A stretch of 32,425 bases of DNA, from the NCBI GenBank assembly GCA_043739525.1, contig JAYUEB010000584.1, positions 1-32,425 on the forward strand. The letters run 5' to 3'. The position numbers and the translations under genes were made by a program. The stretch's first letter is position 1. Every line of letters begins with the position of its first letter. The notes under the pieces were generated by a model. It did not search any database. It was not told the DNA's origin and was given only the letters and a program-made list of their open reading frames with translations. Origin of the DNA: Bdellovibrionales bacterium (GTDB lineage Bacteria > Bdellovibrionota > Bdellovibrionia > Bdellovibrionales > JAMPXM01). Of the stretch, positions 151 to 14,080 are shown one piece after another.

Positions 151-858
151 ATGAAGAACTTAAATCAAAAAATTCTCGTAAGACCAAGAATAGCATTGGG
201 AGTTTTGTTTTCTGCGGTTATTTCAACCGTCGTTTTTCAAAACTGTAGTAAGGGTGTCTTGCAGGATAATACAAATTTATCGGCGAACTCTGTACCTCAA
301 ATCACTTCAAATGCTGTTGGTGTGGTTACAATGAGGCAGGTTTATAACTCAATGTTAAGCGTAACAAAAAATAATATTGGTACTTCATCTATCTCAGCTA
401 CAGACGTTGCAAACTTGACTTCTCCAGTTTCAGGTACTGGAGATCCAAGTTCTGTGAATGGTCCTAACTGGATGGCAATCACAAGTCTTTCAGGACTCGG
501 TTGTATTGACGTGATGGCAAGCGAAGCAAACCTTCAAAAAGCAGGCTCAGCTCCAAACTTTTTAACTAAAGTGAATTTGTGGGCAACACCACCAATGATT
601 CAAGATGCTCAGATACAAGACTCAGCTAGCCATTTTGCGCGAGCATATTGGGGAAGAAATCTGACATCTGATGAGAGTGCAACAATCCTTGCAGCCATGA
701 GCGCTTCGTTTTCAGACATTCGAGCTCCTGCAGGAAACCAAACTGCTGGTAATCCGAAAACAGATCCAGTGAATGCTGGAACAAATCGCATGATGTACTT
801 TCTCTGCATGGCGATGCTCTCTTCGATGGATACGCATAAGCGTGTCACTTCGAACTAG
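151..858 (+). CDS. putative lipoprotein of unknown function (Q-N-C lipobox), first gene of a three-gene cassette
   Basis: ATG at 151 is preceded by AGAGG (141-145). N-terminal signal peptide ends in 'VVFQNCSKG'. The segment 'HFARAYWGRNLTSDESATILAAM' resembles the conserved helix of partner proteins of DUF1501/DUF1552-type genes, from memory only. Confidence 0.65.
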   Translation: MKNLNQKILVRPRIALGVLFSAVISTVVFQNCSKGVLQDNTNLSANSVPQITSNAVGVVTMRQVYNSMLSVTKNNIGTSSISATDVANLTSPVSGTGDPSSVNGPNWMAITSLSGLGCIDVMASEANLQKAGSAPNFLTKVNLWATPPMIQDAQIQDSASHFARAYWGRNLTSDESATILAAMSASFSDIRAPAGNQTAGNPKTDPVNAGTNRMMYFLCMAMLSSMDTHKRVTSN

Positions 859-909
859 TCTTTCTCGTTTGTGGGTTTTAATTTTTGAGATTTTATTATT
901 GGGGGAAAT

Positions 910-2499
910 ATGAAAAAGCAACTTTTAAACCAAGATGGTATTCCGGTTTTCTTACATAATGACGGCCATCATAAGAAGCCGACCACTCGTCGTGACTTCT
1001 TGTCGACGGGACTCCTGAGCTTTTCAGGAACTCTGTTTGCTCCCTCAATTCTTCAGACTTTATTTACAAGCTCTTCAGCTCAGGCTGCTGGTTGTGCGGT
1101 TGCGCAAGCCAACACCCTCCCAGCATTTATTAATATTAATTGCTCGGGCGGTCCTGCCTTCGCAAGTTACTTCGTTCCAATGGGAAAAGATGGAAGTACA
1201 CTTCCAACTTACAGTGCTGTCGGGCTAGGAAAAGCTCCTGGTATTCAAACTGTTTTTAATAACGTTCCAATACCAATATATAATGCGACGACTGTTTATT
1301 CTGGTACGGGAAAATCGATCAGTCCTGCGAGTCCGATCACTGCAGCGACGCCTCCCTCTACAAATTTACCTCCGGGTGCCGCAGATCCAACTTTGCCTTA
1401 TGTGAGTCAGTTTATGCAGGCCGTTTTGCTTGCGATCAATCCTGATATTCAAGCAAAAACTTCGATGGTGTCTGTGTTATGCCAATCACAAGATGATAGC
1501 AGTACGAATCCAGTGAATATTACAGGTTTAGTCCAAGCTGCTGGTTATGTTGGTGATACCTTACCGCCATTGGGCACAAACGCGACATCTACGGGTGTTG
1601 CAAATATGCCTGCTCAAGTGAATCCATCTGCGCCTTCAGTGGTTCAAAGTTTTGCGGATATCACGAACGCGATTTCACTTCATACAAAAGTGCGTGCGCA
1701 ATTAAATAACGATCCAAAACTTTTTCAAGCAGTGCTCAATTTAACTAAAAATTTATCTTCTTCTCAAGCAAGAACTCTCGCAAGTGCAAATGGTTCAAAC
1801 TCAGCAACGACACTCGGAAATCTTGTCACTTGCGCGACAGGTAAAAACTATGACTTATCAAGCGCTGGAACAACAGCTCTTGACCCAATGAATGATGCGA
1901 ATACAAAAGCAATTTGGGGTCTTGGTAGTAACACAAATATGGCGAGCATGAGTCAAGCGACTCGTTACGCATTTGCCGGAATCGTTTGGAATCTTTTGCA
2001 AGGACATAGTGGTACTGGCGGTATTAACCTTGGTAGTAACGATTATCATGGTAACGCAAGAACAACTACGGATCTTGTAGATTTTAGAAACGGAGCAGTA
2101 GTTGGAAATATTTTAGCGACTGCAGCGGCGCTCGGTAAAAAAGTATTTATTCAGTTAACTTGTGACGGAGCAACTGGTTCAAACGTTTCAGATGACGTTG
2201 CTGATGCCAGCGGTGACCGAGGAATCGGTGGCGGACAACTTTGGATTGCTTACGATCCAGCTGGTCGCCCAGCTACAAGCGGAAACCAATTGGGTAATAT
2301 GACAAATTCACAGGGTGCAGATAGCACGGCTGTCGTTGGTTCGGATGCAATGCGAGCTTCAATCGCTTGCTGGAGAAATTACTTGCAGTTTGCAAGTGCT
2401 TCGACTGCTCAAACGATGTTTAATAAAATTATTCCTGCAAATACTTCTTCTGACTTTGATGCTGCAACTCTTGCTCAAATATTAAAGTTTCAAGGCTGA
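910..2499 (+). CDS. Tat-exported protein, divergent DUF1501-like (alkaline-phosphatase/sulfatase-superfamily-like)
   Basis: Twin-arginine signal 'TTRRDFLSTGLLSF...SSAQAAG'. 'FININCSGGPAFASYFVP' and 'LGSNDYHGN' resemble the N-terminal GG..D...vP and GGFDTH motifs of DUF1501, as recalled. G-rich SD-like run at 901-905. Confidence 0.6.
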   Translation: MKKQLLNQDGIPVFLHNDGHHKKPTTRRDFLSTGLLSFSGTLFAPSILQTLFTSSSAQAAGCAVAQANTLPAFININCSGGPAFASYFVPMGKDGSTLPTYSAVGLGKAPGIQTVFNNVPIPIYNATTVYSGTGKSISPASPITAATPPSTNLPPGAADPTLPYVSQFMQAVLLAINPDIQAKTSMVSVLCQSQDDSSTNPVNITGLVQAAGYVGDTLPPLGTNATSTGVANMPAQVNPSAPSVVQSFADITNAISLHTKVRAQLNNDPKLFQAVLNLTKNLSSSQARTLASANGSNSATTLGNLVTCATGKNYDLSSAGTTALDPMNDANTKAIWGLGSNTNMASMSQATRYAFAGIVWNLLQGHSGTGGINLGSNDYHGNARTTTDLVDFRNGAVVGNILATAAALGKKVFIQLTCDGATGSNVSDDVADASGDRGIGGGQLWIAYDPAGRPATSGNQLGNMTNSQGADSTAVVGSDAMRASIACWRNYLQFASASTAQTMFNKIIPANTSSDFDAATLAQILKFQG

Positions 2500-2531
2500 G
2501 GTAATTATAATTTTATTGGTTTGGGGTTGGT

Positions 2532-3413
2532 ATGTATGCACGTAAGTTGAAAATTATGTTAGCCCTGTTCGCTTCGATGCTCGTCTACCAGAACTGTGGA
2601 GGCGAGTTCAATGCAAACGGTGAAGGCGTTGTCGTCGCGAGTTCAGACGCTTGCGAAGCGGGAACACAAGCTCTCTTTCAAACAACATTTTATCCGTTCA
2701 CAACACAGAACTGTGTGTCATGTCATACGGCTGCTGGTCCTGGCCTTGGGGCTTTCGCAGATCCAAACGTAGGTTATGCTTACCAAGCTTTCGCTTTGTT
2801 AACTGCAAACACGATTGCGTCTTACGCAACAAATGCGGGACATGCGCCTCCGCACACAGGAACGCAAAACAATGCGGCGATGAATCCGATTATGTCGACA
2901 TGGAAAACCCAAACAAACTGCGGCGGTGGCGGCGGAGAGGGCGGAATTTCAACTACCCAAAAAGTCATGAATCTCACGACGGCTGGACCTACCTATGGAA
3001 TTGGAACCGCTCAAGTCATAGCTTGGGACTTAAGTAAGGATGTCTCCAACGTAAAAGGTTTGGTGGGTACTTTGCAAATTAAAGTCTACGTTGATATTCA
3101 TCAGTTGGGCCCAAACAACAACGCATATAACTATGTATTTCTGAATCCTACGATTCTTAATAACACGGCTTCGAATATTCATATTAGTGGAATTCATATG
3201 TCTATCAATGGTGCTTTGGCGAGTACAGTGACGGCCTATAATCTCGTTGATGTAATTTTGCCGATGTCGAATACAAAAACTCTCATTAGTGCTATCGGAG
3301 AGCCGTATATTATGGATGCGGGTATTATGCCGACGGATACCGTGAGCCTCAGTATTGACCTCATTGAAAACACCAAAGATACACCGACAACAGGTCTGCC
3401 AACCGGCCCTTAA
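2532..3413 (+). CDS. lipoprotein with a single c-type haem motif (CxxCH), PSCyt-like N-terminus, beta-rich C-terminal domain
   Basis: Signal peptide plus 'LVYQNCGGE'. 'TQNCVSCHTAAGPG' haem-binding motif lies about 40 aa after the lipid Cys. Gly run 'CGGGGGEGG' acts as a linker. Only 32 nt separate it from the upstream gene. Confidence 0.7.
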   Translation: MYARKLKIMLALFASMLVYQNCGGEFNANGEGVVVASSDACEAGTQALFQTTFYPFTTQNCVSCHTAAGPGLGAFADPNVGYAYQAFALLTANTIASYATNAGHAPPHTGTQNNAAMNPIMSTWKTQTNCGGGGGEGGISTTQKVMNLTTAGPTYGIGTAQVIAWDLSKDVSNVKGLVGTLQIKVYVDIHQLGPNNNAYNYVFLNPTILNNTASNIHISGIHMSINGALASTVTAYNLVDVILPMSNTKTLISAIGEPYIMDAGIMPTDTVSLSIDLIENTKDTPTTGLPTGP

Positions 3414-6163: not shown

Positions 6164-7543
6164 CTAATTTTGGAGGGCGTGAATGATGGCAAGCTTCTGC
6201 GGGTCGGTCAACGCGCTCAAATGACTTGAATAAGAGCTATCAAAGAGCAACATCGGCTTTGAATTCGCTTGGCCTAAAATAGCTTGTTTTAAGCGATCAA
6301 GAGTTTCATTTCCGATTTGGTTGCGCGAAATACTCAAGTCAAGATGGCAAAGTTTGCAATTGTTATTGTAAAGTTTAACCCCGTCGATTGCGATCAAGTA
6401 AAAATTTTGACTTCCATCATAGACGTTAGGAATAGGCGAACCTACAGCTGGATCTCCAAATTCTGCATTGATGACACAGTCAACGAACTGTGAGTAATCA
6501 TTTGCAGCAGTGTAAGGAATTGGCCCAGTCGGAGCGCAAGGAAGTCCATTTAATCCAAATTGTTTTGAGGCACTTGCTTTATTGAAGAACCTGAGTGTTT
6601 GTCCAACAAACAGAACGGTCGTCTGCAACAAGCCTTGAGGACCAATGTAGTTGGCACTTCCAGGATCAGGAGTCGGAGGATTTCCCATATTAGGAAGACC
6701 CGCAAAAGTAACCGCTAAAGCTCCACCGTAAGTGTAAGTTCCAGACCAAGTTGCTTGAGGAATCACAAATGGTCCACCATTAGGATCGCTACCCGTCACG
6801 TTAAGTGTGACATTGATTCCGACTGAAGTCGGAGCTGGTGAACCAGTCGGAGTTGGGCAGGTAACGGTTAAAGTATTTGTGTTCGTAGCGCCGCTCGTAC
6901 AACCACCAGATAAACTCCAGTTTGCTTGAGCTTCAGGCAAGAAGTTCTGGTTGTTAAATTTGAAAGTGAAAGTTCCAGGAGTTGCAGACGTCGTCTCTTT
7001 AATAATATAGTTACCAGTTTGCATAAATGCAGGAACAAAAGTAGGAGGTGTCACACCAATCTTATTCCAGTTTCCAGTCGCGGCAGTAATCACAAACGGA
7101 ACAAGGCTTGTTGAACGAGGTAAACCATCGTTTACTACAAAGTTTGATGTCAATGGTCCGATAACTCCACCAGATCCTGAATTGACGACGAGAGTAATTG
7201 AGAGAACGCCTTTACCAGTACAATTAACAATATAAGGATCAGCATTATCTGCACTGACCTCAGTACAAGTTGTTGTTGAGTTTAAAAGGTTGGTCCAAAC
7301 AAGCGGACCATTTCCAATTAGACTTTTATCAAAACTAAATGAAAGATTTTGATTTGGACTATAGTTATTTGTGAGCGCTGCAGTAATAACAGTCGATCCT
7401 TGAATCGAGTCTGCTGATACAGTGCTTGAGTTAGAAGAAAAACTAGGGCCGCAGTTTTGAAAGCTTAAGACCATAGTTGAAAAAACATAGGTCCAAATCC
7501 AAAACTTTTGACCTTTTAGATGAGCAAATCTTGAAGTCTTCAT
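6164..7543 (-). CDS. multidomain lipoprotein: two Ig-like Cys-pair modules, a cupredoxin-like module and a C-terminal monohaem cytochrome c-like domain
   Basis: Signal peptide plus 'LSFQNCGPS'. Repeated module 'W.N...C......Y.VNC..G.L.IT'. 'VGQTLRFFN...LPC...GP...VDCV' module at about aa 305-387. 'LYNNNCKLCH' at aa 391-400, with a downstream Met ('SKPMLL') as a possible sixth ligand. Confidence 0.75.
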   Translation of the reverse strand: MKTSRFAHLKGQKFWIWTYVFSTMVLSFQNCGPSFSSNSSTVSADSIQGSTVITAALTNNYSPNQNLSFSFDKSLIGNGPLVWTNLLNSTTTCTEVSADNADPYIVNCTGKGVLSITLVVNSGSGGVIGPLTSNFVVNDGLPRSTSLVPFVITAATGNWNKIGVTPPTFVPAFMQTGNYIIKETTSATPGTFTFKFNNQNFLPEAQANWSLSGGCTSGATNTNTLTVTCPTPTGSPAPTSVGINVTLNVTGSDPNGGPFVIPQATWSGTYTYGGALAVTFAGLPNMGNPPTPDPGSANYIGPQGLLQTTVLFVGQTLRFFNKASASKQFGLNGLPCAPTGPIPYTAANDYSQFVDCVINAEFGDPAVGSPIPNVYDGSQNFYLIAIDGVKLYNNNCKLCHLDLSISRNQIGNETLDRLKQAILGQANSKPMLLFDSSYSSHLSALTDPQKLAIIHALQN

Positions 7544-7575: not shown

Positions 7576-8310
7576 TTAGTGGCTGAGAGCAAAAACCAGC
7601 GCAGTTAAATTTGCCGTATCAGTCGCATCCGTCTGTATTAAGGTCGTCATTGCGGCTGTGTTATGCATGTTTCCCAAGTTACCGGTAATGACAGCCGTAA
7701 TTTGAGCCGCACTTGTATAGCGAATGCTCGATATAGCAAGAGGGTTGTGACAATTAACACAATTTGCAGAGTAAATAGCGGCCCCCGTTGCCATCATCGG
7801 ATTAGGAGTCGGCGTTGGAGTTGCGTTTGGATTAGGCGTAGGAGTCGGCGTTGGTGTAGGAGTCGGTGTTGGCAAGGCTGAACCGATGGCAAAGCTTGAT
7901 GCTTCTGAGCCTACGACTTGACCTTGTTGAATAATTGCAACCGTAATCAAGACTGTCCCTGGCGACGCACAATTAATAGTATAAGTTGGTGCCGATGGAA
8001 GACTGATTTCTCTACAGATCGAATTTGAATTATTAATGTTACTCCAAGCATAGTTTGCACCAGCAGGAATGTTTCCAGACACATTAAAATCGATATTTCC
8101 ACCAGCTGGCAACGTACTTTCAACAGCTACGATCTGAACCGGTACTGATGGCAATGGTACTTGAGATTGATTTGTGCTAGAGGCATTGTTTGTTGAGCCG
8201 CCCCCGCTTGATCCAAATCCCGACCCGCAGTTCTGATAAATCAAACTGGTTGAGGTAATAAGCGCTAACATTCCAATTACGTGCTTTTGTGTTTTCATAA
8301 AAATTCTCAT
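7576..8310 (-). CDS. lipoprotein: Ig-like Cys-pair module, PT linker and C-terminal monohaem cytochrome c-like domain (paralog of 6164-7543)
   Basis: Signal peptide plus 'LIYQNCGSG'. 'YAWSNINNSNSICREISLPSAPTYTINCASPGTVLITV' aligns with the module in the downstream gene. Linker '(PT)6 PNPNATPTPTPNP'. Haem motif 'IYSANCVNCH' with 'GNMHN'. An alternative start lies at 8298 (MKTQKH). Confidence 0.75.
   Translation of the reverse strand: MRIFMKTQKHVIGMLALITSTSLIYQNCGSGFGSSGGGSTNNASSTNQSQVPLPSVPVQIVAVESTLPAGGNIDFNVSGNIPAGANYAWSNINNSNSICREISLPSAPTYTINCASPGTVLITVAIIQQGQVVGSEASSFAIGSALPTPTPTPTPTPTPNPNATPTPTPNPMMATGAAIYSANCVNCHNPLAISSIRYTSAAQITAVITGNLGNMHNTAAMTTLIQTDATDTANLTALVFALSH
7796..7875 (-). 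repeat. imperfect tandem coding repeat (Pro-Thr linker)
   Basis: ggagtcggcgttgg occurs at 7805-7818 and 7841-7854, and ggagtcggtgttgg at 7859-7872. These encode the PTPTPT... linker of the 244-aa protein. Confidence 0.6.
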
Positions 8311-8578: not shown

Positions 8579-8983
8579 TTAAAAGCTGGCAACCCAGGCA
8601 GATAGTTGAGACAAGTCAGAGGTTGCATACACTTGGGCATGACTTGATTGAGTAGGATGAACCGCAATAACATCAAGTCGAGATGTCGCTGAACAAAAGT
8701 TAGCAAGAACGGAAGCATCTGAAGTTCCAGAGATAATTCTAAATGAACCTGCGCCTGATCCGCCGTTGGGTCCTGTGCCTCCGGCAACGTGGCAATTTCC
8801 GCAGCCCTGTTGTGCTCCAACATTTCCGGTCTGTTGAAGAATGCCGGTCATGATAGGTTGAAAAGCAGTCAATTGAGCAGGAGTTGGAGAGCATACAATG
8901 GCCTGCGCGCCAGGAGTATTGCTATTTAAATCCACAGAACAGTTTTGGCAGACCAGCATCGTTAAGATAAAAAATAAGGGCAT
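8579..8983 (-). CDS. small lipoprotein with a single CxxCH haem motif (PSCyt-like)
   Basis: The ORF track starts it at 9055, but that extension overlaps the upstream gene. Met25 at 8983 gives 'MPLFFILTMLVCQNCSV' (signal plus Q-N-C lipobox) and lies 10 nt after the upstream stop. Haem motif 'QQGCGNCHVAGGTGPNGGSG'. Confidence 0.7.
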   Translation of the reverse strand: MPLFFILTMLVCQNCSVDLNSNTPGAQAIVCSPTPAQLTAFQPIMTGILQQTGNVGAQQGCGNCHVAGGTGPNGGSGAGSFRIISGTSDASVLANFCSATSRLDVIAVHPTQSSHAQVYATSDLSQLSAWVASF

Positions 8984-8993
8984 GAGGATTTTC

Positions 8994-9242
8994 TTAGTTA
9001 CAACCACAACCGCCCCCAGCTCCGCCAAATCCACCAACAGACCCTTCGCGAGCATTGAACATATGGTTCATCGAAGTATTCTCTTTCGCATTATCCATAA
9101 GTGCCATACCGCTTTTACTTAAAATATCGCGATCATTTGGCTGAACGCGCTTTCCAAGTAAACCACAAGAACTTAATATCAAAATCGTACTGGCGATTCC
9201 GAAGATCTTGAGAACTTTATGGTAATGAGAAAAAGTATTCAT
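8994..9242 (-). CDS. DUF4266-like small lipoprotein with a Gly-rich C-terminus ending GGGCGCN
   Basis: Canonical lipobox 'LILSSCG'. The 82-aa protein ends '...NAREGSVGGFGGAGGGCGCN*', which matches my recollection of the DUF4266 family terminus. It sits next to a DUF3570-like gene and a TlpA gene, as that family usually does. Confidence 0.65.
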   Translation of the reverse strand: MNTFSHYHKVLKIFGIASTILILSSCGLLGKRVQPNDRDILSKSGMALMDNAKENTSMNHMFNAREGSVGGFGGAGGGCGCN

Positions 9243-9259
9243 CTCTTCCTTATCGGACT

Positions 9260-9778
9260 TTATTTAGATTTCAAGAGAGCAATGATCTCTTTTTCAAACT
9301 TGTCGATATCGCCATCTTTAAAACCTTTATGAATTTTCGTTACTTTGCCTTTTTTGTCTAAAACATATGTCACTGGTAAGCCTGCAACTTCAAGTTTGTT
9401 CAAGACCTCTGCTTTTTGGCCATCGGCAAGTAAAGTCATCTGAACCGGAAACTCTTTTAAGAAGGTATTCGCTTCAGCAAGCTCTTTATCTTCGTTGACT
9501 CCGATGATCTCGAGTCCTTTACCTTGAAATTTTTTGTTTATTTTATTTAGAATAGGCAACTCAACTTTGCATGGTTCGCACCAACTTGCCCAGAAATCAA
9601 CGATAACTACTTTACCTTTGAGTGAGCTCAATTTAACGCTTGAATTAGGATCCGCAAATTTTTTCAATGTAAAATCTGGAAATACTTGGCCAACTTTTAC
9701 TTTTGCAAAAGCAGAACTATTAATTAAAAGACCTACACTGAGTAGGCTCACCGATAAAAACTTTTTCGAAAAGCTCAT
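9260..9778 (-). CDS. TlpA/ResA-family periplasmic thiol:disulfide oxidoreductase
   Basis: Signal peptide present. 'VVIVDFWASWCEPCKVELPIL' contains the thioredoxin CxxC, and 'LEIIGVNED' is typical of the TlpA-like fold. Confidence 0.85.
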   Translation of the reverse strand: MSFSKKFLSVSLLSVGLLINSSAFAKVKVGQVFPDFTLKKFADPNSSVKLSSLKGKVVIVDFWASWCEPCKVELPILNKINKKFQGKGLEIIGVNEDKELAEANTFLKEFPVQMTLLADGQKAEVLNKLEVAGLPVTYVLDKKGKVTKIHKGFKDGDIDKFEKEIIALLKSK

Positions 9779-9811: not shown

Positions 9812-10942
9812 TTAAAATTTCGCGCTCATTCCTAAACCATAGACATTAGCAACAATACGAACGAGTTTACCATTTTTCACGTCGCTCAGATCACCTGGAT
9901 CGACAGTGTTTTTGTAGATGTCCGTATACCATTCGTATTTAAGATAAATTGAAAAATCGTCTGTAAACTTAATCGTTGGGCGAATTCCGCCAAGGTATGA
10001 GCTATAGCTTGCAAGAGTTTTGTTTCCCGTCCAGAAAACTCCTGGAGCAGAAGAATCGTAGTAAGGTTTATAAAAACTTGCCTGTTGTTGAAGATAATAT
10101 CTGAATACGAGAGCGATATTAAAATGTTTGCTAAAATCATGATTGATTTTCTCTTCTAGAGTTTCCGAAAAAACGCCCCAGCTATCGTAGTACAGACGAT
10201 CTGTTGTACTAAATGCTGTCCGCGTGCTTTCTGAAAACCAATTGTATTTTACGGCAAAGGCATTTCGATTGCGAGTCATTGGATGATTTTCAGGCTGAGT
10301 CGTCGCGTTTCCCGAGTTATCAAGAAAAATAGCGCGGCGATAAGGGCTCGCATCGTATCCACTCTCAACACGAAAGTCGTAGAGAAAATTGATTAGGCTT
10401 ACGCGACTCAAAATTTGTGTTAGTGAAATAGAATAACCTTGGTTATTCATCGCTTGGTGAAAAGTGGGAACACCGGATTCTTCAATCGTATCTTGACCAT
10501 TACTAAAGGTGAAACCCAGAACTGTATTTTTTGAAAAGAACTCGCGTGATCCACCGGCAGAGACAATTTTAGAATGATAGTCGTTTTCGTCACTCTGAAT
10601 ATAAGCAGCACTTAAAGTTCCGTCAGGAATTGTGAGTTCGGCATTAGCATCGTATTCCACTCGGCGATCGCCAATGCGACTCTTTTGTCCCTTTGAACCG
10701 AAAGATCGAACATCAACAGAAGCACTCGAAACGATATCGGCAGCCCAGCCCACTCCAATTTTAAGTTGATCATGATAAGCCGTACCCGTGACATCGACTG
10801 ATGGAGAAACGACTTGGGTTTCACCGTCATCGTAGTCACGAATGACTGAATTCACTTCATTAGCAGCAAAAGCTGAAAAAGCCTGAAATAAAAATGCCAT
10901 TGAAACAGTCGGGATAAAAAACTTTTTCATTGGCTTCTTCAT
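9812..10942 (-). CDS. DUF3570-like outer-membrane beta-barrel protein
   Basis: Signal peptide 'FLFQAFSAFA|ANE'. 'YDDGETQVVSPSVDV...ADIVSSASVD' is the N-terminal pattern I associate with DUF3570. Alternating beta-strand sequence and a C-terminal aromatic residue ('GMSAKF'). Its ATG overlaps the upstream stop (ATGA at 10939-10942). Confidence 0.6.
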   Translation of the reverse strand: MKKPMKKFFIPTVSMAFLFQAFSAFAANEVNSVIRDYDDGETQVVSPSVDVTGTAYHDQLKIGVGWAADIVSSASVDVRSFGSKGQKSRIGDRRVEYDANAELTIPDGTLSAAYIQSDENDYHSKIVSAGGSREFFSKNTVLGFTFSNGQDTIEESGVPTFHQAMNNQGYSISLTQILSRVSLINFLYDFRVESGYDASPYRRAIFLDNSGNATTQPENHPMTRNRNAFAVKYNWFSESTRTAFSTTDRLYYDSWGVFSETLEEKINHDFSKHFNIALVFRYYLQQQASFYKPYYDSSAPGVFWTGNKTLASYSSYLGGIRPTIKFTDDFSIYLKYEWYTDIYKNTVDPGDLSDVKNGKLVRIVANVYGLGMSAKF

Positions 10943-11712
10943 AGGCCAACCTCGAGGCTGACCTGTGCTCCGAAGGTCACGAAGCTATTGTTTTGATTAA
11001 ATACCACGGCTTGAGACCCACCAAAGCTAAAAGAAACGCCACCGCTTTGATTGAACTTCAGACCAACAACTCCGTGCAAGAGATAATTAGGTGCGTTCGT
11101 TTTGCTACCTACAAAAATAGCGTTATTTGCAGAAGGTATGAACAGTCCGCCTGCGTAAGAGACAAAACCTGAGAGTTGTTTTGAGATCAGAGCATCGTTT
11201 CCGAGCTCGATACCTAGATGGTGACCCGCACTGGTTTGGGTAATCCATTCGCCGACATAATATTTGGTGTAAAAGCCTGGTGAGCGATAGCGTTGTAATC
11301 CAATCGTAATGAGATAATTGGAGCCGCGAAAGAAAGAACCTGCAGTCGAAATCGAGTTTTTAGAGAGTCCCAGCTCAGAATAACTTGCAAAGTCATCGTC
11401 ATCCATACGGTCTGTTTTAAGTCTCACGTTTGCAGTTTGTGCAATATAGCCGATGGCGCGTCGGCCATCGGGGTAAACGACGAGAACCTTATAAAAACTC
11501 GCTTCTTTTGTCTTGATAAGAACTTTTGCCACCGCAATAGAGGCTTCGGCTTTCAATATATAAAGCGGTCGATAGTTAAATCCGGCACCTGAATAGACAA
11601 TAGTCTCATCATCAATACCAATTAATTGATTGGCTGCGAGGGCACGGTTACCCGTCAAGATTCCTAGCAAAATTGTAAGCACTACTAAAATGAAAAAACG
11701 AAAAAGAAACAT
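10939..11712 (-). CDS. exported protein, SH3b-like N-domain plus beta-barrel-like C-domain
   Basis: I prefer Met37 at 11712 ('MFLFRFFILVVLTILLGILTGNRALA|AN' signal peptide). 'FYKVLVVYPDGRRAIGYI' is SH3b-like. The C-terminal half is Gly/aromatic-rich with alternating strands. Confidence 0.55.
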   Translation of the reverse strand: MFLFRFFILVVLTILLGILTGNRALAANQLIGIDDETIVYSGAGFNYRPLYILKAEASIAVAKVLIKTKEASFYKVLVVYPDGRRAIGYIAQTANVRLKTDRMDDDDFASYSELGLSKNSISTAGSFFRGSNYLITIGLQRYRSPGFYTKYYVGEWITQTSAGHHLGIELGNDALISKQLSGFVSYAGGLFIPSANNAIFVGSKTNAPNYLLHGVVGLKFNQSGGVSFSFGGSQAVVFNQNNSFVTFGAQVSLEVGL

Positions 11713-11775
11713 CTTTATATCGTGAAGAGGCGCATGATTCTTGTCAACGTGCTTAAAGTTCATTATTCTTTTCAA

Positions 11776-13155
11776 ATGAAATTTAAATTCTTGATTTATA
11801 GTTTCCTCCTGATTGTTCATGTCGACTTTGCTTTTTCAAAAGGAAAAGAGATTTTGCTGGATGAAGGTAGATCCGTTCAACAAGAAACGCAGCTGGTCTT
11901 TAGTCGAATTACCGTAGGTGATTTTAAAAACGCAGCGAACGGGCAAGCTTTCAGCCAAGATTTTTGTGGATATCTTGTCGAAGAATTCAATATGAAGAGC
12001 TATTGGGATGCAAAATGTGGGTCCTTTACCCGTATTGGCGATAAGGGTGCTGTTAACGGATCGGATGCTGTATTAAATGGCGAGTGGAAAGAGAATGAAC
12101 TCTACTTATATTTACGCTCTAAAAATCTAAAGTACATACTGGGCGCCTGGAAAGTTCCGATTCCGCTTCCAGATGGAGTATTGCTTAAGCCGACAGCAGA
12201 ACAAATCGTCGGTTTTTTGATTGCGCAGATTCCGATGATAGGTCACGTGATGAAAGTGGGCGGCAACGGAAATGTCATGATCAATATGGGTTCTCGCAAA
12301 GCGGTTCGCGTTGGACAAACTTTCAAAGTTTTTGACTACGTGTCAGTGGATCATCCGCTGAATGGTAAAGTAAAAGACATCGCAAAAGTCGAGATTAAGA
12401 GCGTTGTCGGGCCAGAGTCTTCGGTTGCGACAGTTTATTATAATTCTCCAGATGACCAAAGTATTTCAACGGGCGCTAAAATTAAAATTGATGATTCGGC
12501 TCTCGTCAAAAGTACGTTGACAGAGCGAGAAGGCGAGAGATCTTGGATCGCAGTCGGCGGTCAACTCATGAATATTCGTGTATCAACAGATCCGTTTTCA
12601 GTCGTTCAAAAGCGTAGCTACAACTTCAACTATACGCCTTTTCTTGATTTCGCATTTGGAACCAAAAAACTTTATGTCCATGGTCTTTACGGCCAGGCGG
12701 CAGGACCGAGTGCCGACATTAGTTATCTCGAAGTTGAAGCGGGCACCGATCTCTATAAAGGAAGCTTTCAAGAAGGATTTTTACTTTTTGGAATGGGCGG
12801 AAACGTCTCTCAGTTTACCGCGCTCAATCACGTGACTCCGTCACTATATGAAGATTCGCAACGAATTTCGCCTTTTTTTGATATTCGACTTCAGTATGAG
12901 CCTCGTCCAAGATTTGTTTTTTATGTCGGAGGTAAAGTTCTTTATCCTGTGTTTACAGGTTCGCAAATTGGTGGAGCTCAAATTTTCAGTTACGGAGCTG
13001 AACCTTATGTTGGAGCCAAAATTCAAATGAGCTCAAAATTTGCGGCCGAAGTCCTTGCCAGATCGCGCTACTTTTCAATCAATTATAGCGGAAATACCGG
13101 GATACGAGAAACCCAGACAGCTTTCCTAGTCCGTGGCATCTATTTCATCAATTAG
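11776..13155 (+). CDS. exported protein, periplasmic alpha/beta and beta-sandwich N-domains plus beta-barrel-like C-domain
   Basis: I prefer Met19 at 11776 ('MKFKFLIYSFLLIVHVDFAFS' signal peptide). 'GHVMKVGGNGNVMINMGSRKAVRVGQTFKVF' is a small beta-domain motif. The C-terminus is strand-rich and ends 'GIYFIN'. Confidence 0.55.
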   Translation: MKFKFLIYSFLLIVHVDFAFSKGKEILLDEGRSVQQETQLVFSRITVGDFKNAANGQAFSQDFCGYLVEEFNMKSYWDAKCGSFTRIGDKGAVNGSDAVLNGEWKENELYLYLRSKNLKYILGAWKVPIPLPDGVLLKPTAEQIVGFLIAQIPMIGHVMKVGGNGNVMINMGSRKAVRVGQTFKVFDYVSVDHPLNGKVKDIAKVEIKSVVGPESSVATVYYNSPDDQSISTGAKIKIDDSALVKSTLTEREGERSWIAVGGQLMNIRVSTDPFSVVQKRSYNFNYTPFLDFAFGTKKLYVHGLYGQAAGPSADISYLEVEAGTDLYKGSFQEGFLLFGMGGNVSQFTALNHVTPSLYEDSQRISPFFDIRLQYEPRPRFVFYVGGKVLYPVFTGSQIGGAQIFSYGAEPYVGAKIQMSSKFAAEVLARSRYFSINYSGNTGIRETQTAFLVRGIYFIN

Positions 13156-13732: not shown

Positions 13733-14080
13733 CTAATTCGCAACTTCAAAATAAACAGCGGCATCTTCGCCATAGTTATGATCGTAGAGTGGACCATCAG
13801 TTGTTGAACTGTACGGAGCCGTAGTAACACAATCCCAAGCGGCACCCGCTTGAACTTCAGGGCCGTGTTCGCAAGGTGCGCCAAAAGTATGTAGACGATG
13901 AACAACTGAATCGTCATTTATAAAGTGAATCGTGTCTCCCACTTTTGCTTTAATAGGTGTCGCTGCTGTATTCCATGGATTGCCAGCAGTGCCGTTCGCA
14001 ATGTGAAACTCTAGTACTGCCGCATTTGCATTGACCGCAAATCCCAAAGCAAGAGTTGCAACTAAAAGTCTTAAATTCAT
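13733..14080 (-). CDS. small secreted cupredoxin-like protein (standalone copy of a module in 6164-7543)
   Basis: Strong SD (GGAGG, complement of 14085-14089). Signal peptide 'LALGFAVNANA|A'. 'KVGDTIHFINDDSVVHRLHTFGAPCEHGP...WDCV' resembles a cupredoxin strand pattern. A canonical C-x-H-x-M copper site is not evident. Confidence 0.6.
   Translation of the reverse strand: MNLRLLVATLALGFAVNANAAVLEFHIANGTAGNPWNTAATPIKAKVGDTIHFINDDSVVHRLHTFGAPCEHGPEVQAGAAWDCVTTAPYSSTTDGPLYDHNYGEDAAVYFEVAN

Follow-up and report, generated by a model that had tools for sequence, protein, structure and literature searches.

What chemistry could be served by a lipoprotein whose mature part offers one predicted helix and a Gly-rich tail closing with two Cys residues, and which partner would use it? 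This question is raised by the 82-residue product of the gene at 8994..9242 on the minus strand of a 32,425-nt contig from a Bdellovibrionales bacterium (JAYUEB010000584.1, assembly GCA_043739525.1; the whole stretch is hereafter called the window), which we assigned to the DUF4266 family. An earlier note, made from the DNA letters, had described a lipoprotein with a lipobox and a Gly-rich tail ending in Cys-Gly-Cys-Asn and had read the tail as a swinging arm for metal or thiol-disulfide chemistry; the protein so described was confirmed, one detail about its neighbours excepted. As detailed below, the Cys pair is invariant in the family, and the gene is obligately accompanied by genes for a thioredoxin-fold oxidoreductase (the redoxin) and for a Cys-free DUF3570 protein predicted to be an outer-membrane β-barrel. 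The best-supported reading, to which we give an even chance, is a thiol-to-flavin relay in which electrons would run from the redoxin through the CGC pair of DUF4266 to flavin mononucleotide (FMN) on DUF3570.

The DUF4266 lipopeptide and its invariant cysteine pair

The open reading frame (ORF) at 8994..9242 of the minus strand, comprising 82 codons and a TAA stop, is a genuine gene. A Shine-Dalgarno-like AAGGAAG (9245..9251, minus strand) is located 2 nt 5' of its ATG, inside the 17-nt gap that follows the stop codon (9260..9262) of the TlpA-like redoxin gene, and the product matched Pfam PF14086 (DUF4266) at 55.5 bits (gathering threshold 27; E 1.1e-14), model positions 1-50 of 50 being covered by residues 33-82. 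This was the only Pfam match of the protein, and no NCBIfam match was found for it. The N-terminus (MNTFSHYHKVLKIFGIASTILILSSC26GLLGK) carries a signal peptide (residues 1-26; 9165..9242, minus strand) with the lipobox L23-S-S-C26 (codons 9165..9176) and Gly as the +2 residue, and the mature protein comprises 57 residues. Its sole predicted helix (residues 52-68, ENTSMNHMFNAREGS; 9039..9089, minus strand) holds H60 and the near-invariant E66, and is followed by the Gly-rich tail (residues 69-82, VGGFGGAGGGCGCN; 8997..9038, minus strand), in which C79-G80-C81 is encoded at 9000..9008. The protein thus closes with ...REGSVGGFGGAGGGCGCN, that is, NAREGSVGGFGGAGGGC79GC81N82 followed by TAA. A mechanically called ORF at 8579..9055 overlaps the 3' end of the gene; this is an over-extension, and the downstream gene most likely starts at the ATG at 8983.

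The terminal Cys pair, on which the earlier note had built its reading, was borne out by the family alignment. Among the 120 homologs listed from the 147 retrieved in a word-index search, 119 end in GCGCN and one in GSGCN. When 1.84 billion cluster representatives were searched with a profile, 880 clusters at 50% identity matched at E<=1e-3, and in the best 150 of these a C-x-C was located at the C-terminus or at most two residues from it without exception (150/150); the ending was GCGCN in 133, most of the other listed tails having CGC with a differing flanking or terminal residue, with CAC in nine and CCC in one. This invariance rests on searches with hidden Markov models (HMMs), which also reward the tail, and on inspection of the best 150 of the 880 matches, while the genome scan that supplied loci L007-L086 was baited with the pattern AGGGCGCN, and these loci are thus unfit to test it. 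When 80 diverse members were aligned, the lipobox Cys, M46, G78, C79 and C81 were invariant (80/80), L41, E66 (79/80), G70, G76, G77, G80 and N82 were kept in at least 90%, and H60 was kept in 71. Exactly two Cys residues beyond the lipid-modified one were present in 78 of the 80 members, whose mature length ranged from 51 to 62 aa. In 79 loci, the codons for Gly, Cys, Ala and Asn within the last eight residues all varied synonymously (Gly as GGA, GGC, GGG or GGT; Cys as TGT or TGC), indicating that selection acts on the DUF4266 protein and not on the DNA; a DNA-level repeat as the cause of the tail conservation was thus rejected.

In five high-GC, Myxococcota-like entries of the representatives search (P0262, P0264, P0282, P0295 and P0308), the DUF4266 frame runs on from an upstream Cys-rich/CxxCH protein, the upstream part ending in a hydrophobic stretch and RRRR. 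A preprint has reported that the DUF4266/DUF3570/TlpA neighbourhood adjoins some JDVT-CTERM proteins (Haft, 2023), and the joined frames may correspond to the C-terminal-sorting-signal proteins of that work; they could be either real fusions or run-on ORF calls.

An AlphaFold2 model of DUF4266 built on the 80-sequence alignment consisted of the signal-peptide helix (residues 3-24), an unstructured stretch (25-51), the helix at 52-68 and an unstructured Gly-rich tail (69-82), for which the block-mean predicted local distance difference test (pLDDT) score was 57 at residues 71-80 and 45 at residues 81-82. DUF4266 is thus predicted to have no globular fold of its own, and a PDB profile search with it retrieved no usable relative. 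In all 80 members, nevertheless, the module from L41 to the C-terminus, the last 42 residues, is of constant length, with spacings of 4 residues between L41 and M46 (80/80), 19 between M46 and E66 (79/80) and 12 between E66 and C79 (80/80), and just the linker after the lipid anchor varies (9 to 19 residues). Since a free tether would tolerate insertions and deletions, the fixed length points to a defined docked conformation on a partner, and the sequence pattern fits a module that takes its shape there. The flexible swinging arm of the earlier note therefore stood as far as the predicted disorder of the isolated peptide goes, but the invariable length argues that the segment is docked rather than freely swinging.

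In the E. coli Lol rule, the +2 residue is related to the sorting of a lipoprotein. In the family, the residue after the lipobox Cys is Ser, Ala or Gly in 58 of the 80 members and Asp in just two, and by that rule, applied here to another phylum, DUF4266 is probably anchored in the outer membrane. A C-terminal sorting signal within the tail was also considered and rejected, as no transmembrane segment follows the Cys residues.

The redoxin and barrel partners of DUF4266

The partners of DUF4266 were counted by an HMM recount over the 79 loci carrying its gene. DUF3570 was present in 76 of them and the redoxin in 72, the latter across several phyla, both always on the same strand as DUF4266 and within 3.5 kb; two of the three DUF3570 misses are contig ends. 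All the redoxins have (W)CxxC, nearly always WCxPC. The flavin transferase ApbE was found in 53 loci, in 48 of them within 3.5 kb. The trio ranges over Gammaproteobacteria, Bdellovibrionota, Myxococcota, Bacteroidota and Alphaproteobacteria, in three architectures that each have their own tail flavour. Type A (Shewanella, Glaciecola/Paraglaciecola, Kangiella and others), the commonest architecture, seen in Gammaproteobacteria, reads Tlp-DUF4266-DUF3570-ApbE, contains no cytochrome and has tails ending in ...FSKEASSGGRSFAGGGCGCN. Type B (Steroidobacteraceae, Cellvibrionaceae and some Flavobacteriales), with tails ending in ...EAREGARGAEGSAGGGCGCN, places three genes before the trio, encoding a ~930-aa protein with a hydrazine-synthase-alpha-like (HZS-alpha-like) middle domain, PD40 repeats and CxxCH, an SH3 + outer-membrane-protein (OMP) barrel protein, and an OMP-barrel lipoprotein. 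Type C, that of Bdellovibrionota and of the window, reads X-DUF3570-Tlp-DUF4266-cytochrome. In one locus from a metagenome-assembled genome of an uncultured proteobacterium (L028), redoxin, DUF4266 and ApbE-like ORFs were accompanied by no detectable DUF3570, the sole such case with full flanks; a natural exception and an assembly or frameshift problem are both possible there.

In the window, the redoxin gene (9260..9778, minus strand; 172 aa, WCEPC at 9569..9583) adjoins DUF4266, as the earlier note had seen in its TlpA-like neighbour. The product matched Pfam Redoxin (E 1e-25), AhpC-TSA and Thioredoxin_8. Among NCBIfam models its best match was ResA (NF002854), with 106 bits against a cut-off of 170; the TlpA equivalog model (NF047696) gave 76.6 bits against 230, and the DsbE cut-off was likewise missed. 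Judged by these scores, the protein is a periplasmic member of the broad TlpA/ResA/DsbE family only, and the parallel with Bradyrhizobium TlpA drawn in the earlier note was not supported, the redoxin not being a TlpA equivalog. WCEPC is the active site of the reductant ResA. With TlpA, ResA and CcmG, whose substrates are apocytochrome c, ScoI and CoxB, the redoxin shares the character of a secreted WCxPC reductase serving a specific envelope Cys pair, whereas the substrate proposed here is a 57-residue lipopeptide and not a cytochrome or copper protein.

The DUF3570 protein of the window (9812..10942, minus strand; 376 aa, PF12094 with E 1.3e-33) is encoded upstream of the redoxin across a 33-nt gap. 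Its AlphaFold2 model, built on 56 homologs, reached a mean pLDDT of 91.9 and a predicted template-modelling (TM) score of 0.82, and comprised 16 long antiparallel strands. Long connections occurred at odd positions only (74-89, 196-222, 286-312 and 349-358), the even-position turns being of 2-4 residues. The chain ends in ...SAKF, and the C-terminal residue is Phe, Tyr or Trp in 74 of 76 homologs. Foldseek returned solely outer-membrane barrels (FadL, PgaA, CdiB, porins, PelB, and MtrB at rank 37) with TM 0.32-0.52; these were generic barrels, no specific relative being found, and a PDB profile search with DUF3570 likewise gave no usable relative. Because of this strand pattern, the C-terminal aromatic residue and the Foldseek matches, DUF3570 is predicted with good model confidence to be a 16-strand outer-membrane β-barrel. 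The window protein is Cys-free; in the family, no Cys was present in the last 340 residues of 72/76 DUF3570 proteins, and 51 of the 56 Bdello-type homologs had none after residue 30. The only redox-capable Cys residues of the trio are consequently the CxxC of the redoxin and the CGC of the peptide, and if a dithiol talks to the flavin, it would have to be that of DUF4266.

That a flavin belongs to this system was missed in the earlier note. DUF3570 is a substrate of ApbE: the Chlorobium luteolum protein was flavinylated by its ApbE at two [S/T]GA[S/T] sites (Meheust et al., 2021; eLife 10:e66878, PMC8238504). The same study described 221 DsbD-associated clusters containing DUF4266 and 316 further clusters of ApbE, DUF3570, a thioredoxin-like protein and DUF4266 without DsbD, and noted of DUF4266, a small secreted protein, that its conserved CXC "may undergo redox cycling". 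A reductase-substrate relationship between redoxin and DUF4266, which the earlier note had put forward, is thus the best-supported reading, given their pairing in 72 of 79 loci and this published suggestion; since the redox cycling of the CXC had already been proposed by Meheust et al. (2021), the thiol-disulfide reading rediscovers a published hypothesis, and the observation of the earlier note stays within the 2021 bioinformatic description. Where that description has DUF4266 "secreted", we found the family to be uniformly lipobox-bearing (Cys column 80/80). An mSystems paper of 2024 and a J. Biol. Chem. (JBC) review of ApbE of 2025 make no mention of DUF4266, DUF3570 or DsbD systems. The envelope redox module of type B, large, conserved and located upstream of Tlp/DUF4266 in L012, L007 and others, is not described in the 2021 paper (PMC8238504).

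The recognition motif of ApbE is D-x-x-[S/T]-G-A-[S/T] (PMC12052999). A D-x-x-[ST]-[GS]-A-S sequence was present in 69 of 76 DUF3570 proteins, in all three subfamilies, as DxLTGAS in type A, as DMVSSASxDVVTTAS in type B, and in the window as the single motif D69-I-V-S-S-A-S75 (10718..10738, minus strand), in which Ser takes the place of Gly. Across the 56 Bdello-type homologs, D69 was invariant, S73 and S75 were kept in at least 90%, S75 being the putative flavin acceptor, and the Ala was conserved. In the model, the motif falls where strand 3 gives way to the long connection 74-89. In some DUF3570 proteins the Ala of the motif is itself replaced (DSLTGPS, DSLTGSS and DVLTSSS; L043 and L058 of Shewanella, and L005/L006), with ApbE adjacent or linked; either the textbook consensus understates what ApbE accepts, or the motif is being lost in these proteins.

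A possible thiol-to-flavin relay and its alternatives

In the proposed relay, a membrane donor of the CcdA/DsbD type, presumably encoded elsewhere, would feed the periplasmic WCEPC redoxin, and this co-transcribed redoxin would reduce the disulfide of the DUF4266 CGC, which would cycle between dithiol and disulfide. The dithiol would then give two electrons to FMN attached covalently by ApbE to the DUF3570 barrel. Flavoprotein disulfide oxidoreductases have a flavin-proximal dithiol in cis; for the Cys-free barrel, DUF4266 would provide it in trans. We infer these electron-transfer steps and their direction, along with the flavinylation of the window barrel. Flavins naturally convert two-electron into one-electron transfer, and here the flavin would stand between a dithiol and a heme; in the Bdellovibrionota-type operon, the monoheme cytochrome c lipoprotein whose gene starts 10 nt after the DUF4266 stop codon could receive electrons one at a time from the flavin. 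A CGC peptide has an E0' of -167 mV and is a kinetically labile mimic of protein disulfide isomerase (PDI) (Woycechowsky & Raines 2003, as cited in PMC4316792). By analogy with this peptide, a CGC pair at ~-167 mV would fit well between a reductant of the TlpA/ResA type and a flavin.

Several observations weigh against this relay. A CGC couple at ~-167 mV is not obviously a better reductant than FMN, which leaves the direction uncertain, and the invariant M46 and the frequent H60 could equally be metal ligands. The motif of the window barrel has Ser in the canonical Gly position, and ApbE was adjacent in 41 of 48 loci with canonical Gly motifs but in 3 of 21 with Ser/Thr variants (another 3 had it at a distance); a Gly-to-Ala change in a model substrate lowered flavinylation to ~50% (PMC12052999). 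By standard OMP topology, with the termini in the periplasm and the long loops outside, the modelled DIVSSAS motif would lie in the extracellular loop L2, and a periplasmic lipopeptide could reach the FMN site only by passing through the barrel, which would need the 14-residue Gly tail (~45-50 Å fully extended) in the lumen. Neither ApbE (PF02424) nor DsbD/CcdA (PF02683) was matched among the 28 scanned ORFs of the window. DsbD (PF02683) was not found in the annotated Bdello-type relatives either.

If the tail were indeed threaded into the lumen, DUF4266 and DUF3570 could jointly conduct electrons across the outer membrane without heme, an extension that we consider unlikely. The CGC dithiol would come to lie against FMN in loop L2, where strand 3 ends on the outer side, and reducing equivalents would travel from cytoplasmic thioredoxin, via CcdA/DsbD and the redoxin, to the cell surface, where in Bdellovibrionota they would be passed to lipoprotein cytochromes; barrel and lipopeptide would amount to a split "flavoprotein disulfide reductase". 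As in MtrAB(C), in RcsF within OmpA/C/F and in LptE within LptD, a 16-strand barrel is here paired genetically with a lipoprotein bearing a slim disordered segment of fixed length. The likeness to MtrB is generic, though (TM 0.32), the multiheme cytochrome is not involved here, and the threading is hypothetical.

The same chain could also run oxidatively, generating or dumping disulfides in the manner of Mia40-Erv1-cytochrome c, which we regard as improbable. The redoxin would then oxidise substrates and pass the electrons to the CGC disulfide, from there to FMN, which would convert two- to one-electron transfer, and on to the cytochrome c lipoprotein downstream. This lipoprotein (8579..8983, minus strand; 134 aa, CGNCH at 8789..8803, lipobox-like VCQNC15) matched no Pfam family and resembles a monoheme c-type cytochrome. 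A CxxCH homolog directly follows DUF4266 in all the Bdello-type loci whose sequence was read, and three further contigs have an unannotated gene of matching size there. The CxxCH lipoprotein at this position and the other CxxCH proteins encoded nearby would suit an oxidative path, as would the relatively oxidising, PDI-like potential of CGC (~-167 mV). Gross and colleagues reportedly described in 2002 the shuttle disulfide of Erv2p as a C-terminal Cys-Gly-Cys. In Erv1, the flavin and then cytochrome c receive electrons from a shuttle disulfide carried by an unfolded arm (PMC7318334), a precedent on which both the oxidative path and the proposed relay can draw. What our system has in common with the Erv/ALR/QSOX sulfhydryl oxidases is a relay by two Cys residues of an unfolded terminal segment, between a thioredoxin-fold partner and a flavin. 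The likeness is functional only, as the Erv FAD-binding domain was not found in the operon proteins; the flavin here would be an FMN phosphoester-linked to a β-barrel, the arm is a separate lipoprotein, the Cys-free barrel offers no flavin-proximal CxxC, and the likely direction is reductive. Arguing for that direction, the redoxin has the ResA-type WCEPC site of a reductant; DsbD, the supplier of reductant, co-localises in other lineages (the 221 clusters of PMC8238504); and type A, the commonest architecture, has no cytochrome, the CxxCH homolog being absent from the gammaproteobacterial loci.

We rate as similarly improbable the metal-binding arm envisaged in the earlier note. Here CGC, perhaps with M46 and H60, would bind Cu(I) or another soft metal and hand it on to a partner, the thiols being kept reduced by the TlpA-like protein. 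An invariant Cys pair together with the invariant M46 and H60 (71/80) would make a plausible ligand set for a soft metal, and TlpA-type reductases serve the copper-site Cys residues of Sco and CoxB in Bradyrhizobium, which would be the precedent. Domain 3 of CCS, the copper chaperone for SOD1, moreover has a CXC near the C-terminus, on a flexible tail, that serves Cu(I) transfer as well as disulfide chemistry, but no homology to it was detected for DUF4266, whose genomic context is not copper-related. Copper-handling genes (Sco, PCuAC, CopA/CopZ, multicopper oxidase) and other metal-trafficking genes were absent from the scanned window ORFs and the annotated recurrent neighbour clusters, the obligate partners are instead a flavinylated barrel and, in most loci, a flavin transferase, and Pfam, NCBIfam and PDB searches found no similarity of DUF4266 to metallochaperone families. 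Of the two chemistries named in the earlier note, thiol-disulfide exchange was thus favoured by the redoxin in 72/79 loci, while copper found no such company.

A purely structural role is improbable too. DUF4266 would plug or assemble the DUF3570 barrel as LptE does LptD, with CGC as a static 11-membered disulfide ring or tight turn. A fixed-length module of 42 residues, mostly disordered alone, would suit a peptide that folds on a partner, and conserved residues with charged or polar side chains are numerous in the DUF3570 strands (e.g., R281-Y283-Q285). Such a role would leave unexplained both the obligate, co-directional thiol-disulfide oxidoreductase (72/79 loci) and the pairing of a Cys-free barrel with a two-Cys peptide, and vicinal CxC disulfides are described, in PMC4316792, as strained and reactive rather than stabilising.

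Finally, modification of the Gly/Cys tail as in ribosomally synthesized and post-translationally modified peptides, with heterocyclisation of the microcin B17 type, is highly improbable and was rejected: GGGCGCN superficially resembles thiazole-forming precursor cores and nothing more, no gene for a YcaO/cyclodehydratase, dehydrogenase or leader-peptidase/transporter was present in the scanned window or annotated neighbour clusters, and DUF4266 has a Sec/lipoprotein signal and envelope redox proteins as its conserved partners.

The Bdellovibrionota operon and its neighbourhood

The operon of the window comprises five closely spaced minus-strand genes, the first of which is a 293-aa ORF (10939..11820, minus strand) overlapping the DUF3570 start by 4 nt. 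A gene-finder call exists at the same position in every annotated Bdello-type locus, with a homolog cluster in seven loci, and translation probably starts in truth at M36 (11715). The product has no Pfam match. Its residues 64-127 weakly resembled the SH3 domain of the type-B "SH3 + OMP barrel" protein (hhalign probability 35%), to which BLASTP similarity was weak as well (E 0.21); we regard this resemblance as a lead and not a finding. The 293-aa protein may belong to the system as another small protein of the outer membrane. A promoter and terminator scan of the operon gave nothing better than shuffled sequence, and the operon limits are thus drawn from gene spacing alone.

Downstream of the cytochrome-like gene are two further minus-strand genes whose products each have a lipobox-like QNCG signal and one CxxCH: a 244-aa protein (7576..8310; CVNCH) with a (PT)n linker and a weak Cytochrome_CBB3 match, and the protein at 6164..7543 (CKLCH). 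The earlier note had set the lipobox of DUF4266 apart from the neighbouring genes, but the three downstream genes have VCQNC, YQNCG and FQNCG, one relative having the canonical LQGC there, and a 395-aa hydrolase carries LLGC; signal-peptidase-I-type signals were seen solely in the products of the two upstream genes, the redoxin and DUF3570. From these sequences, Q-N-C may be a lineage-specific lipobox variant.

Three plus-strand genes at 151..3413 encode proteins of 235, 529 and 293 aa, the third of which has a CxxCH motif. In relatives, the corresponding genes keep synteny with the DUF4266 operon. In L003, L005, L030, L084 and L087, this block is co-directional and lies between the operon and a convergent ApbE gene 6-8 kb downstream. 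In the window and its closest relative (L001) it is inverted, and ApbE is not within reach, none having been found within 10 kb of the operon in L001. The gene order thus suggests a local rearrangement. Other than in these two, ApbE lies 0.4-8 kb away in six Bdello-type loci, namely the five named above and the contig of P0072, where it directly follows the cytochrome gene; this linkage in relatives counts in favour of the relay.

Two other genes of the window were noted. A divergent gene (11722..13155, plus strand) encodes a 477-aa protein with no Pfam match, conserved in position among Bdello-type loci (cluster c20); the homolog in L003 ends in ...GLVFSF, which is β-signal-like, and the protein could be another outer-membrane protein. 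At 13733..14080 of the minus strand, a 115-aa secreted protein with clustered His and Cys residues (HRLHTFGAPCEHG) likewise had no Pfam match, and L001 has a gene of similar size (117 aa) at that position; the product may be a small protein with a metal or redox site.

Compared with the clusters of Meheust et al. (2021), the window shares DUF4266 with its C-terminal CXC, DUF3570 and a thioredoxin-fold protein. It differs in gene order (X-DUF3570-Tlp-DUF4266-cytochrome rather than Tlp-DUF4266-DUF3570-ApbE), in lacking ApbE and DsbD within its 32 kb, in its shorter DUF3570 (376 vs ~435 aa) with a single motif having Ser for Gly, in a redoxin that matches Redoxin/AhpC-TSA/Thioredoxin_8 and not PF13899, and in an operon that includes the monoheme cytochrome c lipoprotein. 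At the family level, the predicted barrel fold, the absence of Cys from a barrel whose partner peptide has two, and the unfolded module of constant length are additions of the present analysis, while the window adds a lineage variant with another gene order, a shorter barrel, a single Ser-variant motif, no ApbE in cis and a cytochrome c lipoprotein. These same features, namely the barrel fold, the Cys-free barrel beside a two-Cys peptide, the fixed 42-residue module and the cytochrome-linked, ApbE-distal variant of Bdellovibrionota, also serve as experimental handles.

The trio is among the few proposed envelope electron-transfer systems that join thiol-disulfide and flavin chemistry. If CGC does pass electrons to a flavin on an outer-membrane barrel, this would be a new route by which reducing power could get to the outer membrane, or through it, with no need of multiheme cytochromes, and the interest of the system would climb sharply if barrel and lipopeptide were a flavin-based electron conduit across that membrane.

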